From assembly GCA_965247685.1 (NCBI GenBank), contig OZ252021.1, positions 360,001 through 392,000 of the forward strand: a DNA stretch of 32,000 nucleotides, read 5' to 3'. This document shows, in pieces, positions 12,194 to 31,830 of the stretch. A model generated the notes under the pieces. It ran no database searches. It was not told the DNA's origin and saw only the letters and a list, made by a program, of their open reading frames with translations. How positions within the stretch are numbered: the first letter of the stretch is position 1; each line of letters begins with the position of its first letter. Position numbers and translations under genes: made by a program. Source of the DNA: Bdellovibrionales bacterium. GTDB taxonomy: Bacteria > Bdellovibrionota > Bdellovibrionia > Bdellovibrionales > UBA1609.

Positions 12194-13795
12194 TCAAAGC
12201 CCCCAAGCTATTCCATCACCACGAGAATCAAAAGCTCCTCTTAAAATATGATCCTCTCCTTTTTGAATACCATAAACTTTGCCAAGATGAGATTTCTCTT
12301 CTACCGTGTGTTTTTTTGCTTTAAGAGCTCGTATCAACTCAGGACTAAAACGATTTTTTTCCAAAAAAGTTTTTCGAGGTAAAAACTGATGGTGAACTCT
12401 TGGAAACTGTACAGCTTGATCAATACTTAATTTATTCACTAAAGTACGATAAAGAACCTGCAATACGCCTGTAATAATACGAGGTCCGCCGCTTCCTCCT
12501 AAAGCTAAAACAGTTTGATTTTTCTTCTTCACAATGGTTGGAGATGTAGAGCTGAGTGGACGTTTTCCTGCCTCTACTTTATTCCCTTGCCCTTGAATAA
12601 GACCATAAGCATTTGGTTGATGGATACGAGTTGTGAAATCATCTAACTGATTATTCAACACAATACCATATTGGGAAGTCACCACCTTAGAACCGTATTG
12701 CAAATTCAAAGTTAAGGTCATGCTGACTGTACGACCCTCTTTATCCATAACAATAAGATGAGTTGTTTCTTTTAAAGGGTCGAGTTGATACACCTTTTCT
12801 AAAGAAATAGAATCTTTCATCTGTTTGAGATATGAAGTGGATAAGAGTTGATCAACAGGCACTTTATGAAACTGAGGATCTGCAATTAAAGTGCGTATAC
12901 GAAAAGATCGTGACATAATTTCAGCCAGTAGGTGTAACTCATTATGACTGAGCATCTTGTATTTTTTAAGTTTCATTTTCTCTATGAGGGAAAGAGCCGA
13001 AGCAATAATAATACCCCCTGAGCTTGGAGGAGGCATACTGTACACCGTATATTCCATAAAATCTTTTTTTATGGGTTGCAACCAACGAACTTGATAGTTT
13101 TTGAGATCTTCAAGAGTGAGTTCCCCACCATAGCGAGCCACTGTGCTTGTAATATCTTGAGCAATTTTCCCTTTGTAAAATCCCTTTACATTATGCTTTT
13201 TTATTCTTTTCAAAGCACGGGCAATATTTTTTTGTTGAATCATCTCCCCTACCTGATAAGGTTTTCCTTTATTGAAAAATTGAGACATTCCATATTCTAA
13301 ATCAGAAATTTTCCTCGTTATTTGAGCCCACTCTGTTCCTACAACGTACCCATCTTGAGCAAGTGTAATAGCATCTGCAAATAAAGTCTTCCAAGAAAGT
13401 TTACCGTACTTTTGATGTAAGCTCCACATTCCAGCAACAAATCCAGGTACACCAACAGCGCTTCCTCCTTTAACGGAGCTTCGATTTTTTTCTTTATAAT
13501 AAAGAGGATGCATCACTTGAGGAGCTATTTCTCTAAAATCTAAAGCTTCCACTGTTTTTCCCATATCTACTAATGCAAAACCTCCTGCACCTAAAGACAC
13601 ATAATATGGAGTCACTACAGCAAGTGTAAAAGCAGAGGCTATAGCCACATCCACAACATTGCCTCCTCTTTGATGCACTCTTTGAGCAACTTGTTGAAGA
13701 TAGGAGGAGGGACCGACTATGGATAAATGGCGGCTTTCAAAAGGTAAAGAGTAGGAAAAAAAAGGAACAAGAAGAACAAGAATGATTTTTTTCAT
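12194..13795 (-). CDS. ggt: Gamma-glutamyltranspeptidase
   Basis: Signal peptide. Autoprocessing/catalytic Thr context KETTHLIVMDKEG. GGSGGPRIITGVLQV block. 533 aa. Confidence 0.88.
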   Translation of the reverse strand: MKKIILVLLVPFFSYSLPFESRHLSIVGPSSYLQQVAQRVHQRGGNVVDVAIASAFTLAVVTPYYVSLGAGGFALVDMGKTVEALDFREIAPQVMHPLYYKEKNRSSVKGGSAVGVPGFVAGMWSLHQKYGKLSWKTLFADAITLAQDGYVVGTEWAQITRKISDLEYGMSQFFNKGKPYQVGEMIQQKNIARALKRIKKHNVKGFYKGKIAQDITSTVARYGGELTLEDLKNYQVRWLQPIKKDFMEYTVYSMPPPSSGGIIIASALSLIEKMKLKKYKMLSHNELHLLAEIMSRSFRIRTLIADPQFHKVPVDQLLSTSYLKQMKDSISLEKVYQLDPLKETTHLIVMDKEGRTVSMTLTLNLQYGSKVVTSQYGIVLNNQLDDFTTRIHQPNAYGLIQGQGNKVEAGKRPLSSTSPTIVKKKNQTVLALGGSGGPRIITGVLQVLYRTLVNKLSIDQAVQFPRVHHQFLPRKTFLEKNRFSPELIRALKAKKHTVEEKSHLGKVYGIQKGEDHILRGAFDSRGDGIAWGL

Positions 13796-16304: not shown

Positions 16305-17438
16305 ATGGCTATTACCAAAAGATACTATATAAAAAAGAAGAAAAAGGTGATATTTTATCAAGCTGAGTATTTTTCAAAAGGAGTACGTATAGCTTCCAGA
16401 TCTTTTTCAAAAAAGAAAAATGCTCAATTATGGCTAAAAGAATTTAAAGAAAATACTTATTCAGTTACAACTTTTAACAAAGACATTACTTTTAAAAACT
16501 GTGTGGATCAGTTCTTTGTGGATGCTAAAACAAGGCTGACTCCTTCTACCTTTAAGAATTATTCTTGCCAAGCTCGTTATCTTTATCATAGCCCTCTCAG
16601 ATCGATTAAAATATCTGATTTAAAAGGTATATACATTGCTCAATGGCTTTTATGGATGAGAAATCAAACTACATCCCGTAACAAAAAAAGAAAGAATTTT
16701 TTTGCAGAGTTAAAACTCCTAAGCAGTATTTTAAATTGGTATAAAAATTATGTGAACGAAGATTTCAATATTCCTATTACTAGAAAGCATAAGAAGATGT
16801 GTGTTTATAAAATGGTTACTCCAAGACCCATGAACTACTTTATAAAACCTAGTGACTGTAGAAACTGGGTGAAATGGCTTAAACGAAATAAGGAGCCGGT
16901 TTATTGGAAGCTCGTCTTATTTATGCTCTCTACTGGAGTTCGGGTAGGTGAGGCTTGCGGGATTAAGTGGAGTGATATTGATTTTGAGCAAGGGATTTCA
17001 AGGTTGACACAAAAAGTGAAATGGGATGTTTCAAGCAGGAAACCTTTTATAGAAGATGTTTTTAAAACTCCAGCTGAAAGGATTCTTATCATTCCAAAAC
17101 CTTTAAGCGCTGTCTTATTAAGGATGAAAGAAATATCGAAAACAGAGCTTATTTTTGTGAACAAAAAAAATGAAATGCTTAAATACACTACCATACAATC
17201 CAACTTTAATGCTGGATTTATTGCATTAGGGCTTCCTTGGAGATCGACTCACATTTGCCGACATACTTTTGCAACCATGGCTTTGATGGGGACAAAGAAT
17301 TTATCTGCTGTGCAAGCAATCCTTGGTCATACAGAACCTAAGACAACACAACGATATGCAAAGATTGTGTCACTGCTCAACTCAAATATTGGAGAGAAAA
17401 CTTTTGATCTACTATTTAAAAGCAAATTATTGGAGTAA
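16305..17438 (+). CDS. Tyrosine recombinase / phage-type integrase
   Basis: C-terminal catalytic region: GVRVGEACGIKWSDI (Arg I), HICRHTFAT (H-x-x-R) and LGHTEPKTTQRYAK (His and nucleophilic Tyr). The N-terminal SAM-like region is typical of integrases. Confidence 0.88.
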   Translation: MAITKRYYIKKKKKVIFYQAEYFSKGVRIASRSFSKKKNAQLWLKEFKENTYSVTTFNKDITFKNCVDQFFVDAKTRLTPSTFKNYSCQARYLYHSPLRSIKISDLKGIYIAQWLLWMRNQTTSRNKKRKNFFAELKLLSSILNWYKNYVNEDFNIPITRKHKKMCVYKMVTPRPMNYFIKPSDCRNWVKWLKRNKEPVYWKLVLFMLSTGVRVGEACGIKWSDIDFEQGISRLTQKVKWDVSSRKPFIEDVFKTPAERILIIPKPLSAVLLRMKEISKTELIFVNKKNEMLKYTTIQSNFNAGFIALGLPWRSTHICRHTFATMALMGTKNLSAVQAILGHTEPKTTQRYAKIVSLLNSNIGEKTFDLLFKSKLLE

Positions 17439-17912
17439 GTATTTTTATTTATCTATCTATTAAGGCTGTTATATTTTTTCCCATAGATCCTCGTAAAACC
17501 CTCGTAAAATCCTCGTAAAAAAAGTTCAAAACTCATCATAAAACATAAAAATCACTCTTTAAACCCTTGAAAATACACATTCAAGAACCTTTTTTCTTCT
17601 AAGAAGTAAGTGCTAAAAATAGTGCTTATTTTTTTGGGGTTTTTTGTAGGGTCAAGATGCATAAACGTCAAAAATCAACTTTTTTAAATATATACAATTA
17701 AGGAGAAAAAATTATGAAAAATTTAATAAAAAATAAACGAGGGTTTTCACTCGTTGAGCTAATGGTTGTTGTGGCTATCATGGGAACATTGGCCGCAATT
17801 GCAATTCCTGCGTACAATGAATATAGGAAGTCAGCAAAGAAGACTGCTTATAAGTCAGACTTACTATCGCTGCATAGAGGTTGGCTCGCTTTCGGTGTTG
17901 AGCTGGATTCTT
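17410..17912. repeat. Copy 1 of ~500-bp direct repeat (last 29 nt of integrase gene + intergenic/promoter region + first ~200 nt of pilin gene)
   Basis: Near-identical to 19068-19558. Differences are scattered point changes plus one extra 11-bp cctcgtaaaa unit in copy 1. Confidence 0.9.
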
Positions 17913-18436
17913 TTTGTGAAAGAGAAACGACACCTAATCACGTCTCACTTACAAATGTTGGAATGGCGTCACTTGCTAGTAGTAAACTTTATGGAGCTAG
18001 GGGTCTGTGTGAAGACCCAGGTACAATAGTACCTACTTGTACTTGCTCAGGACAAGTTACTAGCACTACTTGCAGTGGTCACATGACTGTTGGTCCCCCT
18101 CCAGTTAATTGTAACTGTGCTTGGGATGCTACAGCAGGAAGAGGCCCTGGTAAACATAACCTTATAGGTTTTAGTGCAGCAGGTGCTACTTGTCTTGATC
18201 CAAGAAGCAATTCGATAGTGGATACTGATGATGTACTAATAAGAGGAGAAGAGGGTGGGGCACAAACTGTATTAGATATCGACTGTGAGTTAAATATAAC
18301 CACTTATAGAATGGGAGTTGCTGGTCATATCTCTGGTGATCAATATTATGGAGCATCTGTAAATCATAACGGTGTTTTAGTAGATCAAGACGGAGACACA
18401 GCTGCTATTTTTAAACAAGGTGGAGTTTGTTCTTAA
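17714..18436 (+). CDS. Type IV pilin-like protein (N-terminal prepilin cleavage/methylation motif), large Cys-rich C-terminal domain
   Basis: [34 protein letters not shown] is a class III signal peptide with Gly-1, Phe+1 and Glu+5. Strong SD (AAGGAG) 8 nt upstream. 10 Cys residues in the C-terminal 175 aa. Confidence 0.88.
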   Translation: MKNLIKNKRGFSLVELMVVVAIMGTLAAIAIPAYNEYRKSAKKTAYKSDLLSLHRGWLAFGVELDSFCERETTPNHVSLTNVGMASLASSKLYGARGLCEDPGTIVPTCTCSGQVTSTTCSGHMTVGPPPVNCNCAWDATAGRGPGKHNLIGFSAAGATCLDPRSNSIVDTDDVLIRGEEGGAQTVLDIDCELNITTYRMGVAGHISGDQYYGASVNHNGVLVDQDGDTAAIFKQGGVCS

Positions 18437-19067: not shown

Positions 19068-19558
19068 TACTATTTAAAAGCAAATTATTGGAGTAAGAAT
19101 TTTTATTTATCTATCTATCAAGGTTGTTATATTTTTCCCGTAGATCCTCGTAAAATCCTCGTAAAATAAGTTCAAAATTCATCATAAAACATAAAAATCA
19201 CTTTTTAAACCCCTGCAAATACACATTCAAGAACCTTTTTTCTTCTAAGAAGTAAGTGCTAAAAATAGTGCTTATTTTTTTGGGGTTTTTTGTAGGGTCA
19301 AGGTGCATAAACGTCAAAAATCAACTTTTTTAAATATATACAATTAAGGAGAAAAAATTATGAAAAATTTAATAAAAAATAAACGAGGGTTTTCACTCAT
19401 TGAGCTAATGGTCGTTGTGGCTATCATGGGAACATTGGCGGCGATTGCAATTCCTGCATACAATGAATATAGGAAGTCAGCAAAGAAGACTGCTTATAAG
19501 TCAGACTTACTATCGCTGCATAGAGGTTGGCTCGCTTTCGGTGTTGAGCTGGATTCTT
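19068..19558. repeat. Copy 2 of the ~500-bp direct repeat
   Basis: Carries the last 29 nt of the integrase reading frame (tactatttaaaagcaaattattggagtaag) without any integrase gene upstream. Followed by the same promoter region and pilin 5' end. Confidence 0.9.
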
Positions 19559-19847
19559 ATTGTGCAAGAGAGACTAAACCACGAGAGGCTACATTATCTA
19601 ACGTAGGAATGGTATCTCTCTTTTCTAGTAAACTTTATGGCAATCAAGGATCAGCAGCAGACGCCAATTGTAATGTTGGTGTCCAGGGCCTTCCGCTTGT
19701 GTATTGGGGATTACTACATATAGAATGGGAGTTGCAGGACATATATCTGGTGACCAGTATGTAGGAATAAATGTAGTACAAACTGGTATTTTGGATGAAA
19801 ATGATAGTGCTGCTGCTACAGCCTCACTTAGTGATGCTTGTACTTAA
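19360..19847 (+). pseudogene. Type IV pilin paralog interrupted by a frameshift (or sequencing error)
   Basis: The first 66 aa are almost identical to pilin 1. Frame 1 stops at 19764. The conserved C-terminal motif [17 protein letters not shown](V/Y)G is found in another frame (open 19674-19847, ending DACT-stop). The shift must lie between 19674 and about 19712. Confidence 0.7.
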
Positions 19848-22645: not shown

Positions 22646-23680
22646 TTAAATCGATGAAATTTCATCTAAAAACAATTGTATATCTTTCTTAGTTTTTTGA
22701 TCATGAAAATCAATATTTTCCTTTTTTAAACAGTAATCAGAGGTGAAAAAGGATATTCGACCAATGTTGTCAAAATTTAATTTTATACGAGATTTTGCTA
22801 TTTTTGAATATTTCTTAATAGACAAGTCCCAAAGATAGTAAGAGATTTTAAATCGATCTAAAGTTACTTCATAAGAATCCATAGTAAAACATTGAACTGG
22901 TCCACCTCCACGAAATGCGCTTCCAAACAACGAAAGAAATATCATTTCAGAATCCATTCTATCAGCTTGAAGTTTCATCCTTGCATTTCCACTATTTAGA
23001 ATACCATTAACTATGTCCGTTCTGCGATCGGACTTCATACTAGACATAGCTTTCCTAATTTTCCAAGAATTACTCCATATTTGAAAAAATGGAGGAACAA
23101 ATTGATAAGTATTCACCATTCCACACATATTCCTATCAATAGATTCAGATAAATCTTTTTTGAATGAATCAGATTTTTCTCCAAAACATCCAAACCTAGT
23201 AAAATCGTAGCACAGAAATCTATTTATCATTAAAATATCCAAGACTGAATTACTATTTAAAGTATGTTTATATTCAGGCTCTAAAAGAGTATATAAGTTT
23301 TTATATGCTACCGTCTTATTTATATTTTGTTTCTTTGATTTAATTCTTTTTGATAAAAATTCGTTAAACCCTTCTTTAGTTATTTTTTCTTTAAGTCGTT
23401 TAGTGTAAATATCAAGGGCTGTATCAAAGAAACTCACAGAATCATCAGCTGACTTTAGTGATTTATCTATGTTTTTATATATCGATTCTTTTAATTCTTT
23501 ATCTATACCGAATTCTTTATCAATCTGATGTTGAGAAATCCCATAAAATTCTATCGTTGATGCTATAGATATAGCCATCTTTTTATCTTTCATGTGAGGG
23601 AATATATGTTTATAAAAATTGGGGGTTTTAGTACCAAATATCTTTCCCATTATGCTATTATCTAAATAAATCTTTTCCAA
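22646..23680 (-). CDS. Hypothetical 344-aa cytoplasmic protein (orphan gene in defence island)
   Basis: Long ORF with no TM helix and no signal peptide. No motif confidently recognised. The N-terminal KIYLDNSIMGKIF weakly resembles the first strand of PIN-like domains. Confidence 0.6.
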   Translation of the reverse strand: MEKIYLDNSIMGKIFGTKTPNFYKHIFPHMKDKKMAISIASTIEFYGISQHQIDKEFGIDKELKESIYKNIDKSLKSADDSVSFFDTALDIYTKRLKEKITKEGFNEFLSKRIKSKKQNINKTVAYKNLYTLLEPEYKHTLNSNSVLDILMINRFLCYDFTRFGCFGEKSDSFKKDLSESIDRNMCGMVNTYQFVPPFFQIWSNSWKIRKAMSSMKSDRRTDIVNGILNSGNARMKLQADRMDSEMIFLSLFGSAFRGGGPVQCFTMDSYEVTLDRFKISYYLWDLSIKKYSKIAKSRIKLNFDNIGRISFFTSDYCLKKENIDFHDQKTKKDIQLFLDEISSI

Positions 23681-23838: not shown

Positions 23839-23866
23839 TTGACATAATTTAATTATAATATACAAT
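23839..23866 (+). promoter_or_regulatory. Near-consensus sigma70-type promoter (TTGACA-16 nt-TACAAT)
   Basis: ttgaca at 23839-23844, a 16-nt AT-rich spacer, and tacaat at 23861-23866. Confidence 0.5.
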
Positions 23867-23872
23867 TTAGTA

Positions 23873-23989
23873 ACGATCAATCGGATGTAAATGAAACTTG
23901 TACTTAATTGATAAATTTGAAACTGTGGTTTGTTTAGATGCTACCACAGTATAAGATCAAAAGGGAGAACGAAAGTTCTCCCTTTTTTT
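23873..23989 (+). ncRNA. Candidate ~115-nt small RNA or terminated leader upstream of the CBASS operon
   Basis: Bounded by the promoter above and a strong terminator. Contains an internal perfect 8-bp hairpin (actgtggt 23922-23929 / accacagt 23943-23950). The only ORF inside it is 6 codons long. Confidence 0.3.
23963..23989 (+). terminator. Rho-independent terminator
   Basis: gggagaac-gaaa-gttctccc followed by T7. No plus-strand CDS precedes it. Confidence 0.8.
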
Positions 23990-24045: not shown

Positions 24046-24073
24046 TTGACTTTTATATAATTTATGTTATAAT
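24046..24073 (+). promoter_or_regulatory. Putative sigma70-type promoter of the CBASS operon (TTGACT-16 nt-TATAAT)
   Basis: ttgact at 24046-24051 and tataat at 24068-24073, about 50 nt upstream of the capV-like GTG start. Confidence 0.5.
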
Positions 24074-24124
24074 AAGTCATAATAAAAAAATATATTCATT
24101 TTAAGAGATTTTTTAAAGGACCAT

Positions 24125-25090
24125 GTGAAAATACAATCGAGTAACTCAACTATAAACAATAAAGAAAACCAGAAACCTTTCAAAATTCTTGCTCTAGACG
24201 GAGGCGGGGTGCGTGGAATCTTACCCGCTCAAATATTGGCACTTATAGAAGAAAAACTTAATATCAGCATATACGAAAATTTTGACCTTATTGTCGGAAC
24301 GAGTACAGGAAGCATTATTGCTGGAGCCATATCAACTAAATACCCATTATCTAAGTTAACAAAAAAATACGCACAATTTGCTCCTAAAATTTTCAAGAAG
24401 TCTCTTTTTAGGCATGGATTCTTTAAATCAAAATATAGCTCAAAGCCTTTAGAAAATTTTTTAAAAGAAGTGTTTGAGGAAAGAAAACTAGGAAATTTGG
24501 AAAAACCTCTAATTATTAACGCAACAAATGTAAGCACTGGAAATGTTATTATTTTCAAATCAAAATACCAAGAAGAAATGAGAAACGGGGAAGATTATAC
24601 TAGAGACAAAAAAATACCTCTGTTTAAGGCTATATTAGCTTCGTGTTCTGCTCCAATTTATTTTAATCCTGTAAATATAGATGGTTCTCTTATTTCTGAT
24701 GGTGGTCTTTGGGCAAACAATCCTTCACTTGTAGGCTATACGGATGCAATCAGAAATTTCAACGCAAAAAATATAAGAATTTTTTCTTTAGGCACAGGAA
24801 AAACTTCAATATCCAATGATTCCTCAAAATGGGGCTGGGGGAAATGTAGTGGATGGGGAGGTGTTAAATTAGTAGACCTTGTAATGTCTTGTCAAACAAC
24901 ATTCCCCTCAAATATACTTAACCTCATTAACAAGGAGAACACTCTAAGAATTAATCCAAGTATTGATGATTGCCCACTTGATGATTATGAGAAAATACCT
25001 AGTTTAAGCGCATTAGCACAGCAAGAATTTAACAATCGAAATATCGAAATCAAAAACTTTTTAACATTAGGAGGTAAAAGTGGAACATGA
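24125..25090 (+). CDS. capV: Patatin-like phospholipase (CBASS effector, CapV-like)
   Basis: LALDGGGVRG (oxyanion GGGxRG), GTSTG (GxSxG nucleophile) and SDGGLWANNP (catalytic Asp-Gly). GTG start with AAGGA upstream. The 3' end overlaps the next gene by 11 nt. Confidence 0.85.
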   Translation: MKIQSSNSTINNKENQKPFKILALDGGGVRGILPAQILALIEEKLNISIYENFDLIVGTSTGSIIAGAISTKYPLSKLTKKYAQFAPKIFKKSLFRHGFFKSKYSSKPLENFLKEVFEERKLGNLEKPLIINATNVSTGNVIIFKSKYQEEMRNGEDYTRDKKIPLFKAILASCSAPIYFNPVNIDGSLISDGGLWANNPSLVGYTDAIRNFNAKNIRIFSLGTGKTSISNDSSKWGWGKCSGWGGVKLVDLVMSCQTTFPSNILNLINKENTLRINPSIDDCPLDDYEKIPSLSALAQQEFNNRNIEIKNFLTLGGKSGT

Positions 25091-26042
25091 ACTGTTTTTC
25101 AAAGATTTTTTAAAAGATGAGGTTAATTTAAATAAAACCAGAATAGACACTCTAGAAGAAAGAAAAGAATCTATTACAAATTATCTGAACACAAATCTTA
25201 GTGGCTACAAAAAATTTAGTGAGCAAGGCTCCTATGCACATAAAACTATTATCAAACCCGTTGATACTAACGATAGCTTTGATGTTGATATTTTAGTTTA
25301 TATAAAGAATGATGATTTCACTCCAAAGGATTTTAAAGAAGACTATGTGGATACAATTTATCAGGTTTTTAAAGGAAATGATAATTATGTAGATAAAATT
25401 ACAAAGAACACTCGTTGTGTAACTATTAAATATGCTGGAGATTTTCATTTAGATATTGTTCCCTGCGTTGAAAAGGATAGTACTTACTATATATGTAATA
25501 GAAACAATAAAGAGTATGAAAAAACTGATGGTGATGGATACAAACAATGGCTGATTGGAAAAAATGAAATTACTGGAAATAATAATTTAAGAAAGGTAAC
25601 TCGTATTTTAAAATTTTTAAGAGATTATAAAAATACATTTTCAGTCAAATCCATACTACTCACTACAATTTTAGGTAATCAAGTTGGTAATGCTGAAAAT
25701 TTTTCTAATTTCCCAACAGCCTTGAAAGAGATTTCTAATAGACTAAATGATTTTCTTCAACAAAACGAAAATATGCCTATAATTGCAAACCCAGTCCTCC
25801 CTGAAGAAGACTTTAACAGACATTGGGATCAGATAAAATATAAAAATTTTAGGGAAAAGTTTAATTCTTATAATGAGAAGATTAATAAAGCATTTAAGGA
25901 AACAAAAAATAATGAAAGCGTAAAAAAATGGAGAGAAATATTTGGAGATACATTTGGAAGACTCATAGAAGGACCTAAAGAACCAAATAAATTATATAAT
26001 AAGACAATAGTGGCAACTAAACCATACTCCGAAAAGTTATAA
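25080..26042 (+). CDS. SMODS-type nucleotidyltransferase (CD-NTase, cGAS/DncV-like)
   Basis: Pol-beta NTase signature GSYAHKTIIKP...FDVDILVY plus the third acidic residue in FHLDIVPC. GTG start preceded by GGAGG. Positioned directly after the patatin gene, as in capV-dncV operons. Confidence 0.8.
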   Translation: MEHELFFKDFLKDEVNLNKTRIDTLEERKESITNYLNTNLSGYKKFSEQGSYAHKTIIKPVDTNDSFDVDILVYIKNDDFTPKDFKEDYVDTIYQVFKGNDNYVDKITKNTRCVTIKYAGDFHLDIVPCVEKDSTYYICNRNNKEYEKTDGDGYKQWLIGKNEITGNNNLRKVTRILKFLRDYKNTFSVKSILLTTILGNQVGNAENFSNFPTALKEISNRLNDFLQQNENMPIIANPVLPEEDFNRHWDQIKYKNFREKFNSYNEKINKAFKETKNNESVKKWREIFGDTFGRLIEGPKEPNKLYNKTIVATKPYSEKL

Positions 26043-26046
26043 TTAT

Positions 26047-26676
26047 TTGATTGATTTTGCTGAAAAAGAATTCAATGAAATAAAAGAATATTTTCCTAAT
26101 TCTTCTTATGATTCAGTCAAAAATAGAATTGATATTTCACTTACTATGCCTCCTCGGTACTATAAAGAAAGTAATCTTTCTGAATGGGAGATAAAGCTTT
26201 GTAATAAAAATCAAACAGGTTGGTTTGATGGTGAGTATTTGATTACAATTGATTTAAATAGTCAGAAAGTTTTTGAACTTTCGGAAAAGATAAAGAGTTT
26301 AGCAAAACAACTAGGTAAAACATTTTTTGATTTACATGTAAATTCAGATGGAAGTTGCTGTCTAGGAATAGATATAGAGAATAAAAAAATGACTCTAACT
26401 GCATTTATTTTTGAAAAAGTTTTTCCTTATTTTTCATGGCAAGCTTATTATGCCAAGTATAAAAGAATTCCTCCTTGTGGAGAGTTCTCTCACGGCGATG
26501 CTGGCAAGCAAGAGGCAATTCAAGACTATGAAAAAACCATGACATCTGTAGATAAATTTGGTCGAAATAAACCCTGTCTTTGTAAAAGTGGGAAAAAATA
26601 TAAGAAATGTTGTTTCCTTTCTGATGAAAAAAAGAAATCTTATTTAAGGGAATTCGAAAAAAACAATAACCTGTGA
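26047..26676 (+). CDS. E2 (UBC)-like protein with C-terminal SEC-C zinc-binding motif (Cap2-short-like)
   Basis: LHVNSDGSCCLGIDI resembles the UBC active site (H-P-N-x(3-4)-G-x-I-C-L-D-I). It is preceded by an N-terminal helix and strand-like segments. The C-terminus CLCKSGKKYKKCC is a SEC-C motif. TTG start 5 nt after the CD-NTase stop. Confidence 0.5.
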   Translation: MIDFAEKEFNEIKEYFPNSSYDSVKNRIDISLTMPPRYYKESNLSEWEIKLCNKNQTGWFDGEYLITIDLNSQKVFELSEKIKSLAKQLGKTFFDLHVNSDGSCCLGIDIENKKMTLTAFIFEKVFPYFSWQAYYAKYKRIPPCGEFSHGDAGKQEAIQDYEKTMTSVDKFGRNKPCLCKSGKKYKKCCFLSDEKKKSYLREFEKNNNL

Positions 26677-26828: not shown

Positions 26829-27341
26829 ATGCATGAGGGTGAGCTTTCTTCCTCTTCTGTAAATAGCTTAATTTCGGACATTAAATCATTGGACAAAAAA
26901 ACAGACCATGAATTTGATTTATTATTAGATACTATTCTTATAACACAACAAAAAATATTAGCTACTGAAAACATCATGAGAGAATTAAACATATTACACA
27001 GAGCTGTTACTAAAAAAGAAGCTATTTATCAGTCACAATATATCTCAAACAATCTTGGTAATTATCCAAAATTATATCCTATAGAAATAGCACCTTTATT
27101 TGATTCAACTAGATACTTTCTAATCGAGATTAGCCTATTGTTTGACCACGCATATAAATCAAAGCAGTTGATTGAAAGTATTTATGAAAAGCTTAAATTT
27201 AAAAAGGAAGATAGAACATACATACAACCTGAGGTAAGAAAAAAATATGATGCGATTTTAGAAGAAACAAAAAAAAATAATTCAAATCCAAACCAAAAAA
27301 TATTTGATACGGTTATAAATAACAATAAAAAGACCACTTAG
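26829..27341 (+). CDS. Hypothetical 170-aa helical protein
   Basis: ORF only. No TM helix and no recognisable motif. Lies between the two defence operons. Confidence 0.45.
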   Translation: MHEGELSSSSVNSLISDIKSLDKKTDHEFDLLLDTILITQQKILATENIMRELNILHRAVTKKEAIYQSQYISNNLGNYPKLYPIEIAPLFDSTRYFLIEISLLFDHAYKSKQLIESIYEKLKFKKEDRTYIQPEVRKKYDAILEETKKNNSNPNQKIFDTVINNNKKTT

Positions 27342-27579: not shown

Positions 27580-28812
27580 ATGTCTGTAGATACCTTACTG
27601 AATATACTTCTACCTGCTAGTTGGTTTGATTGGATCTTCTTTGGTTCTATCTTTGTACTATTTTTTTTGTCTATAGCAAATATTATTTCCATAAACCCAA
27701 ATGTTTTAGTAACAATAGGTATTCTTGGAACTTTTCTTGGTATAGCCACAGGGCTTAATGATTTCAACACTTCAGATATTAGCGCTAGTATTCCTCAATT
27801 ACTAAAAGGATTGAAACTTTCTTTTAAGACAAGCCTTTGGGGAATAATTTTTAGTTTAATTTTAAAAACTATCAATAGTTTTTTATCAACTACAGAGGAT
27901 ACATCAGATACACCAAAGAATATTCAAAATATGCTTTTTCAGATAAATAAAGGGTTATCTGATTTAAGAATAGATATTCATCATTCTTACAATGAGAAGT
28001 TAAGAATCGGCAATAAACAACACACAGAATTTCTTTCTGAATTCAGAAATTTTACAAAAACTATGGCCAAACAAAATTCCAAAGCATTGATCGAAGCTTT
28101 AAATGAAATCATTACAGATTTTAATAAAAATTTAACTGAACAATTTGGAGAAAATTTTAAACAATTAAATACAGCAGTTCATAAGCTAGTAGATTGGCAA
28201 GAAAATTATAAAACTCATATTGAAACTTTACAGAACAAAATGGACTTAGCTCATGAATCTATTTTAAAAACGGAAGAAGTTCTAAAACAAATTGCTCTAC
28301 ATATAAAAGAAATTCCTGAATATTTATCTCAATTCAAAGATATGTTGACCGCACTAAAAAGAACAACTGAGGAGCAGAAAGTTTATTTAACAGGAATAAA
28401 AGAATTAAAGGATCAAGCTATTCAATCTTTCCCTATAGTTGAAGAGAATATTAAAAAAATAACAACAGATTTTTCTGAAATTGCCGAAGAATTTAGTAAT
28501 AAAACAAAAGTAAATTTAAACTCTCAAAAGAAAACTTTTTCATCATTAGAAAAAGGATTTAGTGACTTACAAATTTCTTCCGAAGAGTTAAACAATCAAA
28601 TGCAATCTACTATGAAGGGCATCTTAGGAAAAATGTCTAATGAAATTAATAATAAGATAGAAGAATTCGATCAAAAAATGCAAGAAGAGTTAAGAAGAGT
28701 TATAGAAACAATGGGAAAGCACCTTGCTTCAATAAATGAAAAAGTTGCTAAAGATTACACTCCTATAATTAATCATCTACAAAAAATCCTAGAAGGAGTG
28801 AGCCCTCGTTGA
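27580..28812 (+). CDS. zorA: MotA/ExbB/TolQ-family channel protein with ~290-aa coiled-coil tail (ZorA-like, compact)
   Basis: Three TM helices. GILGTFLGIATGL and FKTSLWGIIFSLILK resemble the two conserved MotA/ExbB channel helices. The remainder is K/E/Q/L-rich with heptad character. An in-frame stop lies 2 codons upstream, so ATG 27580 is the only available start. Confidence 0.7.
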   Translation: MSVDTLLNILLPASWFDWIFFGSIFVLFFLSIANIISINPNVLVTIGILGTFLGIATGLNDFNTSDISASIPQLLKGLKLSFKTSLWGIIFSLILKTINSFLSTTEDTSDTPKNIQNMLFQINKGLSDLRIDIHHSYNEKLRIGNKQHTEFLSEFRNFTKTMAKQNSKALIEALNEIITDFNKNLTEQFGENFKQLNTAVHKLVDWQENYKTHIETLQNKMDLAHESILKTEEVLKQIALHIKEIPEYLSQFKDMLTALKRTTEEQKVYLTGIKELKDQAIQSFPIVEENIKKITTDFSEIAEEFSNKTKVNLNSQKKTFSSLEKGFSDLQISSEELNNQMQSTMKGILGKMSNEINNKIEEFDQKMQEELRRVIETMGKHLASINEKVAKDYTPIINHLQKILEGVSPR

Positions 28813-29510
28813 GTTCTTTAAAAGATATTATTGGTTCTAAAGCAGAAGATGAATCTCAATGGATTTCCATATCAGATTTCATGACTGCTTTAATGGTTAT
28901 TTTTCTGTTTATTGCAGTCATTTATATGAGAGAAGTGAATGGGATAATTAGTTCTTATAGAGATTCTAGAAATGCGATCTATAAAAATTTAAAGAAAGAA
29001 TTTGGAAGTGATTTAAAAAAATGGAAAGCTGAACTTATTAGAGAATCCTTAACTATTCGTTTTGTTGCACCAGAAATATTTTTCGATCCTGCTAAATCAA
29101 CAATCAAACCAGCATTTAAAATTATACTAAATAATTTTTGCCCCAGATATTTTAAGACTATTTATCAATCTAAAAAAGATATTGAGGAAATTAGGATAGA
29201 GGGTCACACATCTATAGAGTGGTTCAACTTTCCAAAAAACATAGCTTACTTTAAAAACATGGAATTATCTCAAAATAGAACACGATCTGTTTTACAATAT
29301 TGTTTCAATTTAGTAAAAAATTCAAACCAAAACAAAGAATGGATTAGAAAACATCTTACAGCTAATGGTCTTTCTTCAAGTAAGCCTTTAAAAAAATGTA
29401 ATCAACTCGCATGTCATAGAAGGGTTGAGTTTCGTGTGCAAGTCAAAGCAGAATCAGTGCTGAATAAAATATCAAATTTTGGAATGAAAAAAAATCGAAG
29501 GTTTAGATGA
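28809..29510 (+). CDS. zorB: MotB/OmpA-family stator-like protein (ZorB-like)
   Basis: QWISISDFMTALMVIFLFIAV is a MotB-type TM helix with the conserved Asp. OmpA-like C-terminus: RIEGHTS, LSQNRTRSVLQY, GLSSSKPL and RRVEFRV. The TTG start overlaps the upstream TGA. Confidence 0.75.
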   Translation: MSSLKDIIGSKAEDESQWISISDFMTALMVIFLFIAVIYMREVNGIISSYRDSRNAIYKNLKKEFGSDLKKWKAELIRESLTIRFVAPEIFFDPAKSTIKPAFKIILNNFCPRYFKTIYQSKKDIEEIRIEGHTSIEWFNFPKNIAYFKNMELSQNRTRSVLQYCFNLVKNSNQNKEWIRKHLTANGLSSSKPLKKCNQLACHRRVEFRVQVKAESVLNKISNFGMKKNRRFR

Positions 29511-30364
29511 AAATTGAAGTGGATTTTAAGGGTTTAATTAGATTAAAACAAAAAATAAATGCTTCCGAAACCAGTTGGAATTTGGATGATTCTCACCCAT
29601 TGAGTGCTTTGTCTTTGTACGAAGGTGAAGAAGTTAGTTCTTTAAACGAGATTGAAATTTATTGTGACTTACTTACTAATAAGAAAGGAGAGCAAATCAT
29701 ACTTTATATCAAAGATTCCAGAATATCGGAGGAAAAAGTTTCAGAACCAGAAAGGGCTCCAAAATTTCATATAGCAGATTGTCGTACACTTGAGGAAATG
29801 AGAGAAAATAATCGTTCTGCAAGATACGTTACTACAACCAGAGCTACAGGAACATTTCTTGTGGATGCGACAAATCCTGACACGCAAGAAGTTATAAAAG
29901 ATTTAGAAAGGCCTTTACATGTATGCAAAAATTGTCTGACAAAATTAGGTTGGAACGGCTATGATCCTGAAAATCCCAAGAAGCAAAGAAATCTTATAGT
30001 TAATGAGTTTTCAATAATTGATTTTCTCGCCACTTACAGCACTTTCTTTAAGGAAAAACCAAATCAGAGTGATATTACGACAAAGACAGGTGGTTATGTT
30101 AAAAATTGGCCAGAGATAGCCAATAGACATAAAGAGAGAACAGATTGGAAGTGTGAGAAGTGTGAAGTTAATCTAAGCACTAAAAAAGAGTATCTTCATT
30201 GTCATCATAAAAATGGTGTTATACAGGAAAATACCAGCTCAAATTTGGAAGCTTTATGTTTTGAATGTCATGCTAATAAGCCTTATCATGGCCAACTTAA
30301 AGCTATCTTAAACAAACAGCCTGAAATCAAAAAGGAAATAGACAATCTAAGAAAGAGAACTTGA
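29507..30364 (+). CDS. zorE: HNH endonuclease-domain protein (ZorE-like)
   Basis: C-terminal CEKCEVNL...LHCHHKNGV...SNLEALCFECHANK is an HNH motif with CxxC...CxxC zinc knuckles. ATGA overlap with the upstream gene. Confidence 0.7.
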   Translation: MKIEVDFKGLIRLKQKINASETSWNLDDSHPLSALSLYEGEEVSSLNEIEIYCDLLTNKKGEQIILYIKDSRISEEKVSEPERAPKFHIADCRTLEEMRENNRSARYVTTTRATGTFLVDATNPDTQEVIKDLERPLHVCKNCLTKLGWNGYDPENPKKQRNLIVNEFSIIDFLATYSTFFKEKPNQSDITTKTGGYVKNWPEIANRHKERTDWKCEKCEVNLSTKKEYLHCHHKNGVIQENTSSNLEALCFECHANKPYHGQLKAILNKQPEIKKEIDNLRKRT

Positions 30365-30687: not shown

Positions 30688-31830
30688 ATGAATAAAAACA
30701 AACAAACAGGTCGTTTTATTCCGAAATTGAATGGAGACAGCTATGAAGCTTTTATCCCAAACCCTCTTCCTCTTTCTGCTCCTTTTCGAATGGAACAGTT
30801 TTATACATTGCTTGAGAAAGCAAACACATCTCTAGGAAGACTAGATGGAATTACAACGGTTCTTCCAAGTTTTAGAAGATTATCTAATATATTTATGAAA
30901 AAGGAAGCCACTCTTTCTTCTAAGATAGAAGGTACACAATCAACTTTATCTGACTTTTTAATTTTTGAAACAAAAGAAGATCAAACAAAATCAGAAGATA
31001 ACATAGAAATTCAAAACTATATTTTAGCTATGGAACATGGTTTGCATAAAATAACAAAACTACCTGTGTCTCGTAGACTGATTTGTGAAATTCATAAAAT
31101 ACTTCTTTCAAGTGGTCGAGGAAGTGATAAAACTCCTGGCGAGTTTCGTAAAACACAAAATTGGATAGGGGGATCTCGCCCAGAAAACGCTATTTTTATC
31201 CCACCACCCCCTGAAAACCTTGATGAATGTTTTAGTGATTTTGAGAAATTTTTAAATAATAAAAACGTGCAAATGCCCACTCTTATCAAAGTTGCTTTAG
31301 CACACGTTCAGTTTGAAACTCTACACCCTTTTTCGGATGGAAACGGAAGAGTAGGAAGACTTCTAATTACTTTCATGCTTTGTTTAAGTGGTCTTTTAAA
31401 AGAACCTTTATTATATCTCAGTTTATATTTTCATAAGCATAGAACAGAGTATTACAATCTACTACAATCTGTTAGAGAAAAAGGAGATTGGGAAGCTTGG
31501 GTTCATTTCTTTCTGACAGGGATTATAGAAACTGCTAAACAAATTCAAGATACATCTCATCAAATTATTAATACATTCAAAGAAGATGAAAAAAGAATAA
31601 AGGGTGAGTGTACGGCTGGGGTTATTAAGGCCTATGGTTGTTTTAAAACATATCCTATTGCTTCGGTTAAAAAAGTGCAGGAAGAATCTTCCTCATCCTA
31701 TCAAACTACTTTAAAATCGTTAAAAACTTTGGAAAAACTTGGATTAGTTAAAGAAATAACAGGTCGACATCATAACAAAATTTTTATTTATAAGAGTTAC
31801 ATAAACATCCTTGAAAGAGGACTCAATTAA
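30688..31830 (+). CDS. fic: Fic-family protein (AMPylase-type) with N-terminal inhibitory helix and C-terminal wHTH-like region
   Basis: Fic motif HPFSDGNGRVGR (HxFx[DE]GNGRxxR). N-terminal SSKIEG fits the [ST]xxxE[GN] inhibitory motif. The length and layout are typical of Fic_N + Fic proteins. Confidence 0.88.
   Translation: MNKNKQTGRFIPKLNGDSYEAFIPNPLPLSAPFRMEQFYTLLEKANTSLGRLDGITTVLPSFRRLSNIFMKKEATLSSKIEGTQSTLSDFLIFETKEDQTKSEDNIEIQNYILAMEHGLHKITKLPVSRRLICEIHKILLSSGRGSDKTPGEFRKTQNWIGGSRPENAIFIPPPPENLDECFSDFEKFLNNKNVQMPTLIKVALAHVQFETLHPFSDGNGRVGRLLITFMLCLSGLLKEPLLYLSLYFHKHRTEYYNLLQSVREKGDWEAWVHFFLTGIIETAKQIQDTSHQIINTFKEDEKRIKGECTAGVIKAYGCFKTYPIASVKKVQEESSSSYQTTLKSLKTLEKLGLVKEITGRHHNKIFIYKSYINILERGLN

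Follow-up and report, generated by a model that had tools for sequence, protein, structure and literature searches.

The window analysed here is a stretch of 32,000 nucleotides from a Bdellovibrionales genome (contig OZ252021.1, positions 360,001 to 392,000 of the forward strand), and coordinates given without a locus name refer to it. Three co-directional open reading frames (ORFs) on its + strand encode a capV-like patatin phospholipase effector (24125-25090; 321 residues, GTG start preceded by AAAGGA), a CD-NTase cyclase (25080-26042; 320 residues, GTG start) and an E2-like, Cap2-short protein that carries a SEC-C zinc motif at its C-terminus (26047-26676; 209 residues, TTG start). The genes are tightly packed, and the ORF coordinates bear out the 11-nucleotide overlap between the first and second genes and the 4-nucleotide gap between the second and third that a first-pass annotation had described. 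That annotation had also proposed a type II-short form of CBASS (anti-phage signalling built on cyclic oligonucleotides), a reading now supported by hidden Markov model (HMM) matches for effector, CD-NTase and E2, by the CD-NTase fold of the second protein, by the lack of E1 and JAB genes and by recurrence of the operon in unrelated genomes. By analogy with the E2-CBASS of Serratia marcescens (SmCdnG-SmE2), the operon is probably an E2-only (type II-short) CBASS that acts through abortive infection, with an E2 working as it does in Serratia.

The effector carries all three of the patatin catalytic motifs first noticed in its sequence, at verified positions: GGGVRG at residues 26-31, GTSTG with the catalytic Ser at residues 58-62, and DGG with the catalytic Asp at residues 192-194. 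Its HMM matches were to Pfam Patatin (1.9e-29) and to a phospholipase effector model of PADLOC (3e-85), and at 222 bits it clears the curated cut-off of 200 for the NCBIfam CBASS_lipase equivalog ('CBASS cGAMP-activated phospholipase').

The SMODS/CD-NTase motif set (GS...DVD...HLD) reported for the second protein was likewise located at verified coordinates, as QGS (residues 49-51), FDVD (residues 67-70) and HLD (residues 123-125). The active-site residues G50-S51, D68/D70 and D125 are intact, and in an alignment of 78 homologues G50, S51, D70 and D125 are invariant while D68 is conserved in at least 90%. HMM searches matched SMODS at 1.9e-34, the DncV-like NTFase family at 1.3e-13 and a PADLOC cyclase model at 3.5e-117; the protein falls under the cut-off of each of the three NCBIfam CBASS cyclase equivalogs. 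The closest solved structures by sequence are Bacillus cereus BcCdnD (PDB 9sa4, identified as BcCdnD through PMC13424991; 1.6e-16) and Escherichia coli CdnC (EcCdnC; 1.5e-11), with SmCdnG at 3.8e-8. An AlphaFold2 model built from the 78 homologues has a predicted local distance difference test (pLDDT) score of 91, and the top 50 Foldseek matches to it are CD-NTases only, ordered as CdnC (1e-15), CdnB (8e-15), CdnD and then CdnG (about 1e-13), with the best structural overlap to CdnD (TM-score up to 0.80). The cyclase is CdnB/C/D-like and not obviously a member of clade G. Clues to the signal differ between the two proteins: the lipase matches the 'cGAMP-activated' equivalog, whereas the cyclase is nearest to makers of cyclic trinucleotides.

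These searches also bear on the idea that the second gene encodes a non-signalling MNT/KNTase nucleotidyltransferase of a toxin-antitoxin pair, in which case the operon would not be CBASS. The candidate was ruled out by the SMODS and PADLOC matches and because every one of the top 50 Foldseek matches is a CD-NTase; the fold found is that of CdnC/B/D/G (1e-15 to 1e-13), not that of an MNT/KNTase. With the adjacent patatin passing the CBASS lipase cut-off as well, this explanation is hardly credible.

Eleven PADLOC E2 models matched the third protein (best 3.7e-18), several of which cover the core at residues 35-164 alone, without the SEC-C motif. Searches of Pfam (E up to 10), NCBIfam and PDB sequences returned SEC-C only (residues 173-189), with neither UQ_con nor Prok-E2 among the matches. 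The putative active-site loop, H97-V-N-S-D-G-S-C-C105-L (26335-26364, + strand), aligns with HPNINSNGSICL of human UBE2D2, and family alignments place a second conserved His in E-F-S-H149-G (26482-26496, + strand), the counterpart of SmE2 H152. Scanning 1.84 billion representatives of clusters at 50% identity recovered 686 relatives (E <= 1e-10). When 29 homologues are aligned, H97, C104, C105, H149 and the four SEC-C Cys are all invariant; when the set is widened to 63 sequences, invariance holds for H97 and C105 alone, and H149 is conserved in at least 90%. A few relatives are about 160-170 residues long, end just past the second His as SmE2 does and match the same PADLOC E2 models, and relatives entirely without SEC-C were reached at about 1e-28.

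The AlphaFold2 model of the third protein (pLDDT 88) opens with an N-terminal helix and a beta-meander; a short inserted helix leads to the His...Cys loop, after which come two helices, the first of them long, then the zinc knuckle and finally a basic helix. Profile searching in the PDB yielded only a weak match to the ubiquitin-conjugating (UBC) fold at the active-site loop (2h2y, E = 0.57). Alignment to UBE2D2 with hhalign, using the sequence identical to PDB 1ur6, paired W47 with W33, YLITIDL with FFLTIHF, KVFE with KVAF and HVNSDGSCCL with the UBE2D2 active-site loop (P of about 1e-3, probability of about 20%). The alignment scored 24.4 against 11.8 +/- 2.3 for shuffled sequences (maximum 22.4), a value reached by none of 300 shuffles, and the aligned segments coincide with strands and a helix predicted independently by AlphaFold2. 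From these sequence comparisons the third protein is likely an E2 homologue, as first suggested, given the eleven E2 models matched and the invariance of C105 and H97 in both alignments. A UBC fold, whose absence would by the first-pass annotation have told against CBASS, draws its support from profile comparison, and Foldseek with the model did not recover it. Alternatively, the third protein could have a different fold and be a SEC-C adaptor that simply accompanies the cyclase and, for instance, links it to some partner in the cell; Pfam and NCBIfam detect SEC-C alone, Foldseek returned no match and the hhalign probability is modest. Several of the PADLOC E2 models match within the core, however, SEC-C-less relatives match the same models, and the invariant His and Cys of the HxN..G.xCL loop align with UBE2D2 with the predicted strands and helix in register, so that an adaptor of this kind is very improbable.

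The Serratia system offers a basis for reading the cyclase tail (Yan et al., bioRxiv 10.1101/2022.05.25.493364; Xiao et al., mLife 2026, PMC12948482; PDB 8hsb, 8yjy and 9kkb). SmCdnG ends in Y405-G406-E407. From this end SmE2 cleaves off E407, or MBP or GFP in full when either is fused there, and the G406-C101 thioester that it forms converts to a G406-K159 isopeptide (bioRxiv 10.1101/2022.05.25.493364; PMC12948482). The same two studies found that G406A is tolerated in SmCdnG whereas G406V and G406L are not, that H87 of SmE2 is catalytic and that H152 modulates interconversion of the two bonds.

In the window cyclase the folded core ends near residue 296 of the AlphaFold2 model, the last helix having ended at residue 288. 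The tail that follows, residues 297-320, is disordered: the model assigns it no secondary structure, and pLDDT is under 50 from residue 301. Within this tail lies a conserved island, A-T-K-P-Y-S (residues 312-317; 26013-26030, + strand), and across the 78 aligned homologues A312 and P315 each reach at least 90% conservation. The protein thus ends ATKPYS-EKL, with S317 following KPY and the final EKL and stop codon at 26031-26042 (+ strand). Tails were compared among the 120 closest cyclase homologues (54-66% identity), of which 96 were counted. A variable linker rich in Ser, Thr, Ala or Gly is followed by the island [A]-T-[K/R]-P-[Y/W/F/H] and one small residue, which is Ala in 79 tails, Gly in 8, Ser in 7 and Leu and Cys in 1 each. 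Beyond it lie 0-11 unconserved residues, often x-x-Asp, and one homologue stops exactly at ...SHA. The small residue near the cyclase C-terminus that characterizes E2-only CBASS, Gly in the cases described, is present here in modified form, as Ser or Ala.

Because this pattern matches that of SmCdnG, where G406 is followed by E407, S317 looks, by analogy, like the processing and conjugation residue, and EKL, given the unconserved tails of relatives, like a removable propeptide. The KPYSEKL ending is not evidence against conjugation. It had been singled out at first as odd; the ending is real, and the unusual chemistry read into it is not indicated, since a conserved small-residue site with a short tail after it is the norm of the sub-family.

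Natural fusions point to the same site. Among the 120 closest relatives of the cyclase, 21 (about one in six) are cyclase-E2 fusions of 513-560 residues, 20 of which carry SEC-C. One of these, P0044, shares 61% identity with the window cyclase in its N-terminal part, and its residues 332-524 align with residues 2-201 of the window E2 at 41% identity (E = 7e-43). The junction, about nine residues past KPYA, reads ...PTKPYA-SHETPILPT-IEYTPAEMEK.... The best PADLOC cyclase model has 462 positions, and because the window cyclase spans only 1-300 of them, the model suggests that the CBASS catalogue already includes the fused form. In Serratia, cGAS-MBP constructs were cleaved by SmE2; the cyclase-E2 fusions are the natural counterpart here and, by that analogy, are a strong argument for the KPY-small-residue site as the place where the E2 acts.

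Such fusions demand cleavage alone, and the third protein might be a tail-processing cysteine protease or a chaperone only, which matures or activates the cyclase by cleavage, releases itself from fusions and leaves no lasting conjugate. The lack of a conserved acceptor Lys past H149 and the failure of Foldseek to recover a UBC fold would fit such a role. A His/Cys protease acting on a C-terminal tail, though, necessarily passes through an acyl-enzyme thioester, in the sole studied E2-CBASS that intermediate goes on to a Lys, and the C-terminal part of the window E2 is rich in Lys. Cleavage without conjugation is on balance unlikely.

The SEC-C zinc knuckle of the E2, C177-x-C179-x8-C188-C189 (CLCKSGKKYKKCC, residues 177-189; 26575-26613, + strand), is followed by a Lys-rich helix at residues 190-206. 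It matched SEC-C at 6e-7 with 29.7 bits, against a gathering score of 20.4 for Pfam PF02810, and C177, C179, C188 and C189 are invariant among the 29 aligned homologues. The knuckle also matches the C-terminal peptides of SecA and YchJ in the PDB; the same CxC-x8-CC knuckle found in those proteins is here joined to an E2 core in a defence operon. In SecA the SEC-C motif binds SecB. The extra motif had been noted at the outset as an oddity of this E2: it is indeed present, with invariant Cys, but it is no oddity, since the CxC...C[C/H] motif occurs in 158 of the 173 family representatives inspected. Because so many representatives carry it, SEC-C is, as judged from their sequences, the rule and not the exception in this E2 sub-family. 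Neither SEC-C nor the KPYSEKL end, both being sub-family norms, points to the different regulatory chemistry that had been thought possible on their account.

The knuckle and the basic helix are a sub-family-specific extension, located where SmE2 has the loop that covers its active site. A lid, a membrane or partner tether, and a sensor are possibilities for the role of SEC-C. In the full-text literature covered, which did not extend to subscription journals, no paper joined SEC-C to a CBASS E2 or to SMODS, and the matches concerned an unrelated lactococcal SEC-C system. When contigs were scanned with the E2 alignment as profile, the short SEC-C pattern governed the outcome, and most of the proteins returned were unrelated ones with SEC-C. 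In two related contigs with the same cyclase (L085, 1036-1632, and L084, 4971-5633), the E2 frame of L085 diverges within SEC-C and ends early (...KNEKCPSNGQKSMQK, then a stop codon); this truncated E2 has lost the zinc knuckle, either by a frameshift that occurs naturally or through a mistake in the assembly.

The order patatin, cyclase, E2/SEC-C recurs in Thiothrix unzii (locus L001) and in metagenome-assembled genomes (L003, L084 and L086). Locus L088 carries the fused cyclase-E2 form, and in L087 a 2TM-SAVED gene lies nearby in place of the patatin. The absence of E1 and JAB genes claimed initially holds: Pfam and PADLOC searches found neither among the neighbouring ORFs on either side of the operon in the window, and neither was found in the related loci. 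A further alternative is that the window copy is decaying or non-functional, its Ser at the processing site and its GTG and TTG starts reflecting lost function. Ser is the minority choice at that position (7 of 96), and the related contig L085 has a truncated E2. Yet all three ORFs are intact and full-length against their homologues, every catalytic residue is present, Ser occurs in seven separate homologues at 90% clustering, and the overlap and spacing of the genes are preserved; there is only a slight chance that the operon is a relic.

The reading preferred here, an E2-only CBASS working as in Serratia, can be set out as a sequence of steps by analogy with SmCdnG-SmE2. The E2 would be both a cysteine protease and a ligase that recognizes the A-T-K-P-Y-S island in the disordered tail of the cyclase. 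It would cut after Ser317 through C105 and H97, freeing Glu-Lys-Leu, and the new cyclase C-terminus would be held as a thioester on Cys105. The cyclase would then be handed to a Lys, whether of the E2 itself, of another cyclase or of a different target. Such a covalent cycle would set the activity state of the cyclase, with infection shifting the equilibrium toward signal synthesis. On phage infection the cyclase would make a cyclic oligonucleotide, which would activate the patatin lipase, leading to destruction of the membrane and death of the infected cell.

Several observations weigh against this reading. At the proposed site the window has neither Gly nor Ala but Ser, which is outside the residues tested in Serratia. 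The AlphaFold2 model of the cyclase is without the ubiquitin-like docking motif of SmCdnG, a helix with a three-stranded sheet. A Foldseek search of the PDB with the E2 model gave no match at E < 0.001 and left SmE2 outside the top 50, and PDB searches with the E2, with family profiles and with two short SEC-C-less relatives did not reach SmE2. After H149 there is no positionally conserved Lys to stand for K159 of SmE2.

A bolder proposal, which we regard as possible but doubtful, is that the E2-SEC-C sub-family is a mechanistically distinct branch of E2-only CBASS. Here the E2 would read a short linear ATKPY-small motif in place of a ubiquitin-like fold, take Ala or Ser where the Serratia enzyme takes Gly, and often begin fused to the cyclase and then cleave itself free, and the zinc knuckle and basic helix would regulate release or activation of the cyclase. 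In such a branch the knuckle and helix may act, for example, as a redox- or zinc-sensitive lid over Cys105, or as a tether to the membrane, the ribosome or a phage component.

Upstream of the operon, a promoter-like site TTGACT-16-TATAAT with an extended TG before the -10 (24046-24073, + strand; 11 of 12 consensus matches) lies about 52 nucleotides 5' of the patatin start codon and is the joint best match of the region. The site proposed as the promoter is thus present; its function is plausible only, because promoter-like sites in this AT-rich region show no excess (23 against 21.2 in shuffles), and it stands as a consensus match. It is preceded by a terminator-like hairpin with a 12-bp stem and a T run (23959-23986, + strand), which seals off the intergenic region upstream. 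Another promoter-like site, close to consensus (TTGACA-16-TACAAT), occurs at 23839-23866, with the terminator about 95 nucleotides later, and the segment 23839-23986 could, from its sequence, be a small transcript just 5' of the CBASS promoter. Rfam searches of the upstream intergenic region gave sub-threshold matches to small RNA terminators only.

Divergent pairs of helix-turn-helix (HTH) and Peptidase_M78 genes lie upstream of the operon in three related loci (L001, 2639-3789; L087, 2891-3837; L088, 1702-2931). HTH and Peptidase_M78 proteins of this kind are the CapH/CapP regulators (bioRxiv 10.1101/2022.04.27.489752). Unlike these three loci, the window operon is without a CapH/CapP pair, and the window copy would therefore rely on its constitutive-looking promoter. 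The position is occupied by a divergent 344-residue ORF on the minus strand (22646-23680), which sits where the related loci have CapH/CapP yet is unrelated to them; it had no match in Pfam, PADLOC or PHROGs. In Thiothrix, an mCpol-domain gene and a gene for a Cap15-like cyclic-nucleotide receptor stand just upstream of the CBASS operon (L001, 1699-2542), and these form a second nucleotide-signalling defence module.

Downstream, a 170-residue ORF (26829-27341) between CBASS and the next system had no match in Pfam, PADLOC or PHROGs. Related loci do not keep it beside the operon, and the stretch separating it from the E2 gene showed no terminator-like site. A complete Zorya type II system follows at 27580-30364, its genes joined by 4-nucleotide overlaps: zorA2 (27580-28812; PADLOC 3.9e-74), zorB2 (28809-29510; 1.5e-77) and zorE2, an HNH nuclease (29507-30364; 7.6e-74). 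Beyond it lies a SoFic defence gene (30688-31830; PADLOC PDLC03963, 5.5e-116) with Fic_N and Fic domains. To judge from these gene assignments, CBASS, Zorya II and SoFic form one defence island. A Fic gene also adjoins the homologous CBASS operon of T. unzii (L001, 6597-7733). Past a tyrosine recombinase gene (16305-17438), from about 18.5 kb to the end of the window, G+C is about 0.28 where it had been about 0.35, and for this reason the defence genes are consistent with an acquired island. Elsewhere in the window, two ORFs (17714-18436 and 19360-19764) have a type IV pilin-like N-terminal methylation motif, and a minus-strand gene at 12194-13795 encodes a gamma-glutamyltransferase whose named relatives, at about 50% identity, all come from Bdellovibrionales or Bdellovibrionaceae metagenome-assembled genomes; the source is thus probably a low-G+C, uncultured bacterium of the Bdellovibrionota. 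For the window itself, a standard defence island, the result is mostly one of annotation.

The wider interest lies in the sub-family. E2-only CBASS is the simplest known ubiquitin-like conjugation system, in which one protein serves as protease, E1/E2 and E3, and only the Serratia example has been dissected. The sub-family described here is catalogued and undescribed in experiments, and its features contradict some of the generalizations drawn from that one example: the conserved Gly, the ubiquitin-like docking motif and the clade G assignment all fail for it. Because those generalizations fail, and because the sub-family is large (at least about 690 cluster representatives at 50% identity) and includes natural fusions of substrate and enzyme, it makes a compact test of what is essential to E1-independent conjugation. 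It also poses a defined question, namely the job of the SEC-C zinc knuckle.

Compared with the Serratia system, the window operon likewise has an E2 partner alone, without E1 or JAB, and a small residue near the cyclase C-terminus followed by a tail that is removable in Serratia and putatively so in the window, and H97, C105 and H149 of its E2 mirror the experimentally defined H87, C101 and H152 of SmE2. The two differ in most other respects. Cyclases of E2-CBASS are described as long and 74% clade G, with a conserved C-terminal helix and three-stranded sheet that are necessary for E2 docking and with tails that share no conserved sequence except the Gly (PMC12948482). The window cyclase, by contrast, has 320 residues against 407 in SmCdnG and is nearest to CdnC, CdnB and CdnD, not CdnG; its tail is disordered with a conserved linear island, ATKPY[A/G/S], and the site is Ala or Ser where that of Serratia is Gly. 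The E2 has 209 residues against 162 in SmE2, adding a helix, the SEC-C knuckle and the basic helix, and it is without a conserved equivalent of K159; SmE2 is undetectable from the window E2 family by sequence or Foldseek. The effector is a patatin in the window and a 2TM-SAVED protein in Serratia.

Full type II CBASS, as in Vibrio cholerae, the Enterobacter cloacae CdnD02-Cap2 system and BcCdnD, shares with the window the patatin CapV effector and the gene order, and in each the CD-NTase is short and has a flexible C-terminal tail that serves ubiquitin-like conjugation, a use that in the window is proposed by analogy. Full systems also have an E1 adenylation domain and a JAB (Cap3) peptidase, whereas the window has neither, only the E2 core with SEC-C. 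Since the window tail extends past the Gly/Ala position, processing by the E2 itself would be needed here, unlike in full type II CBASS.

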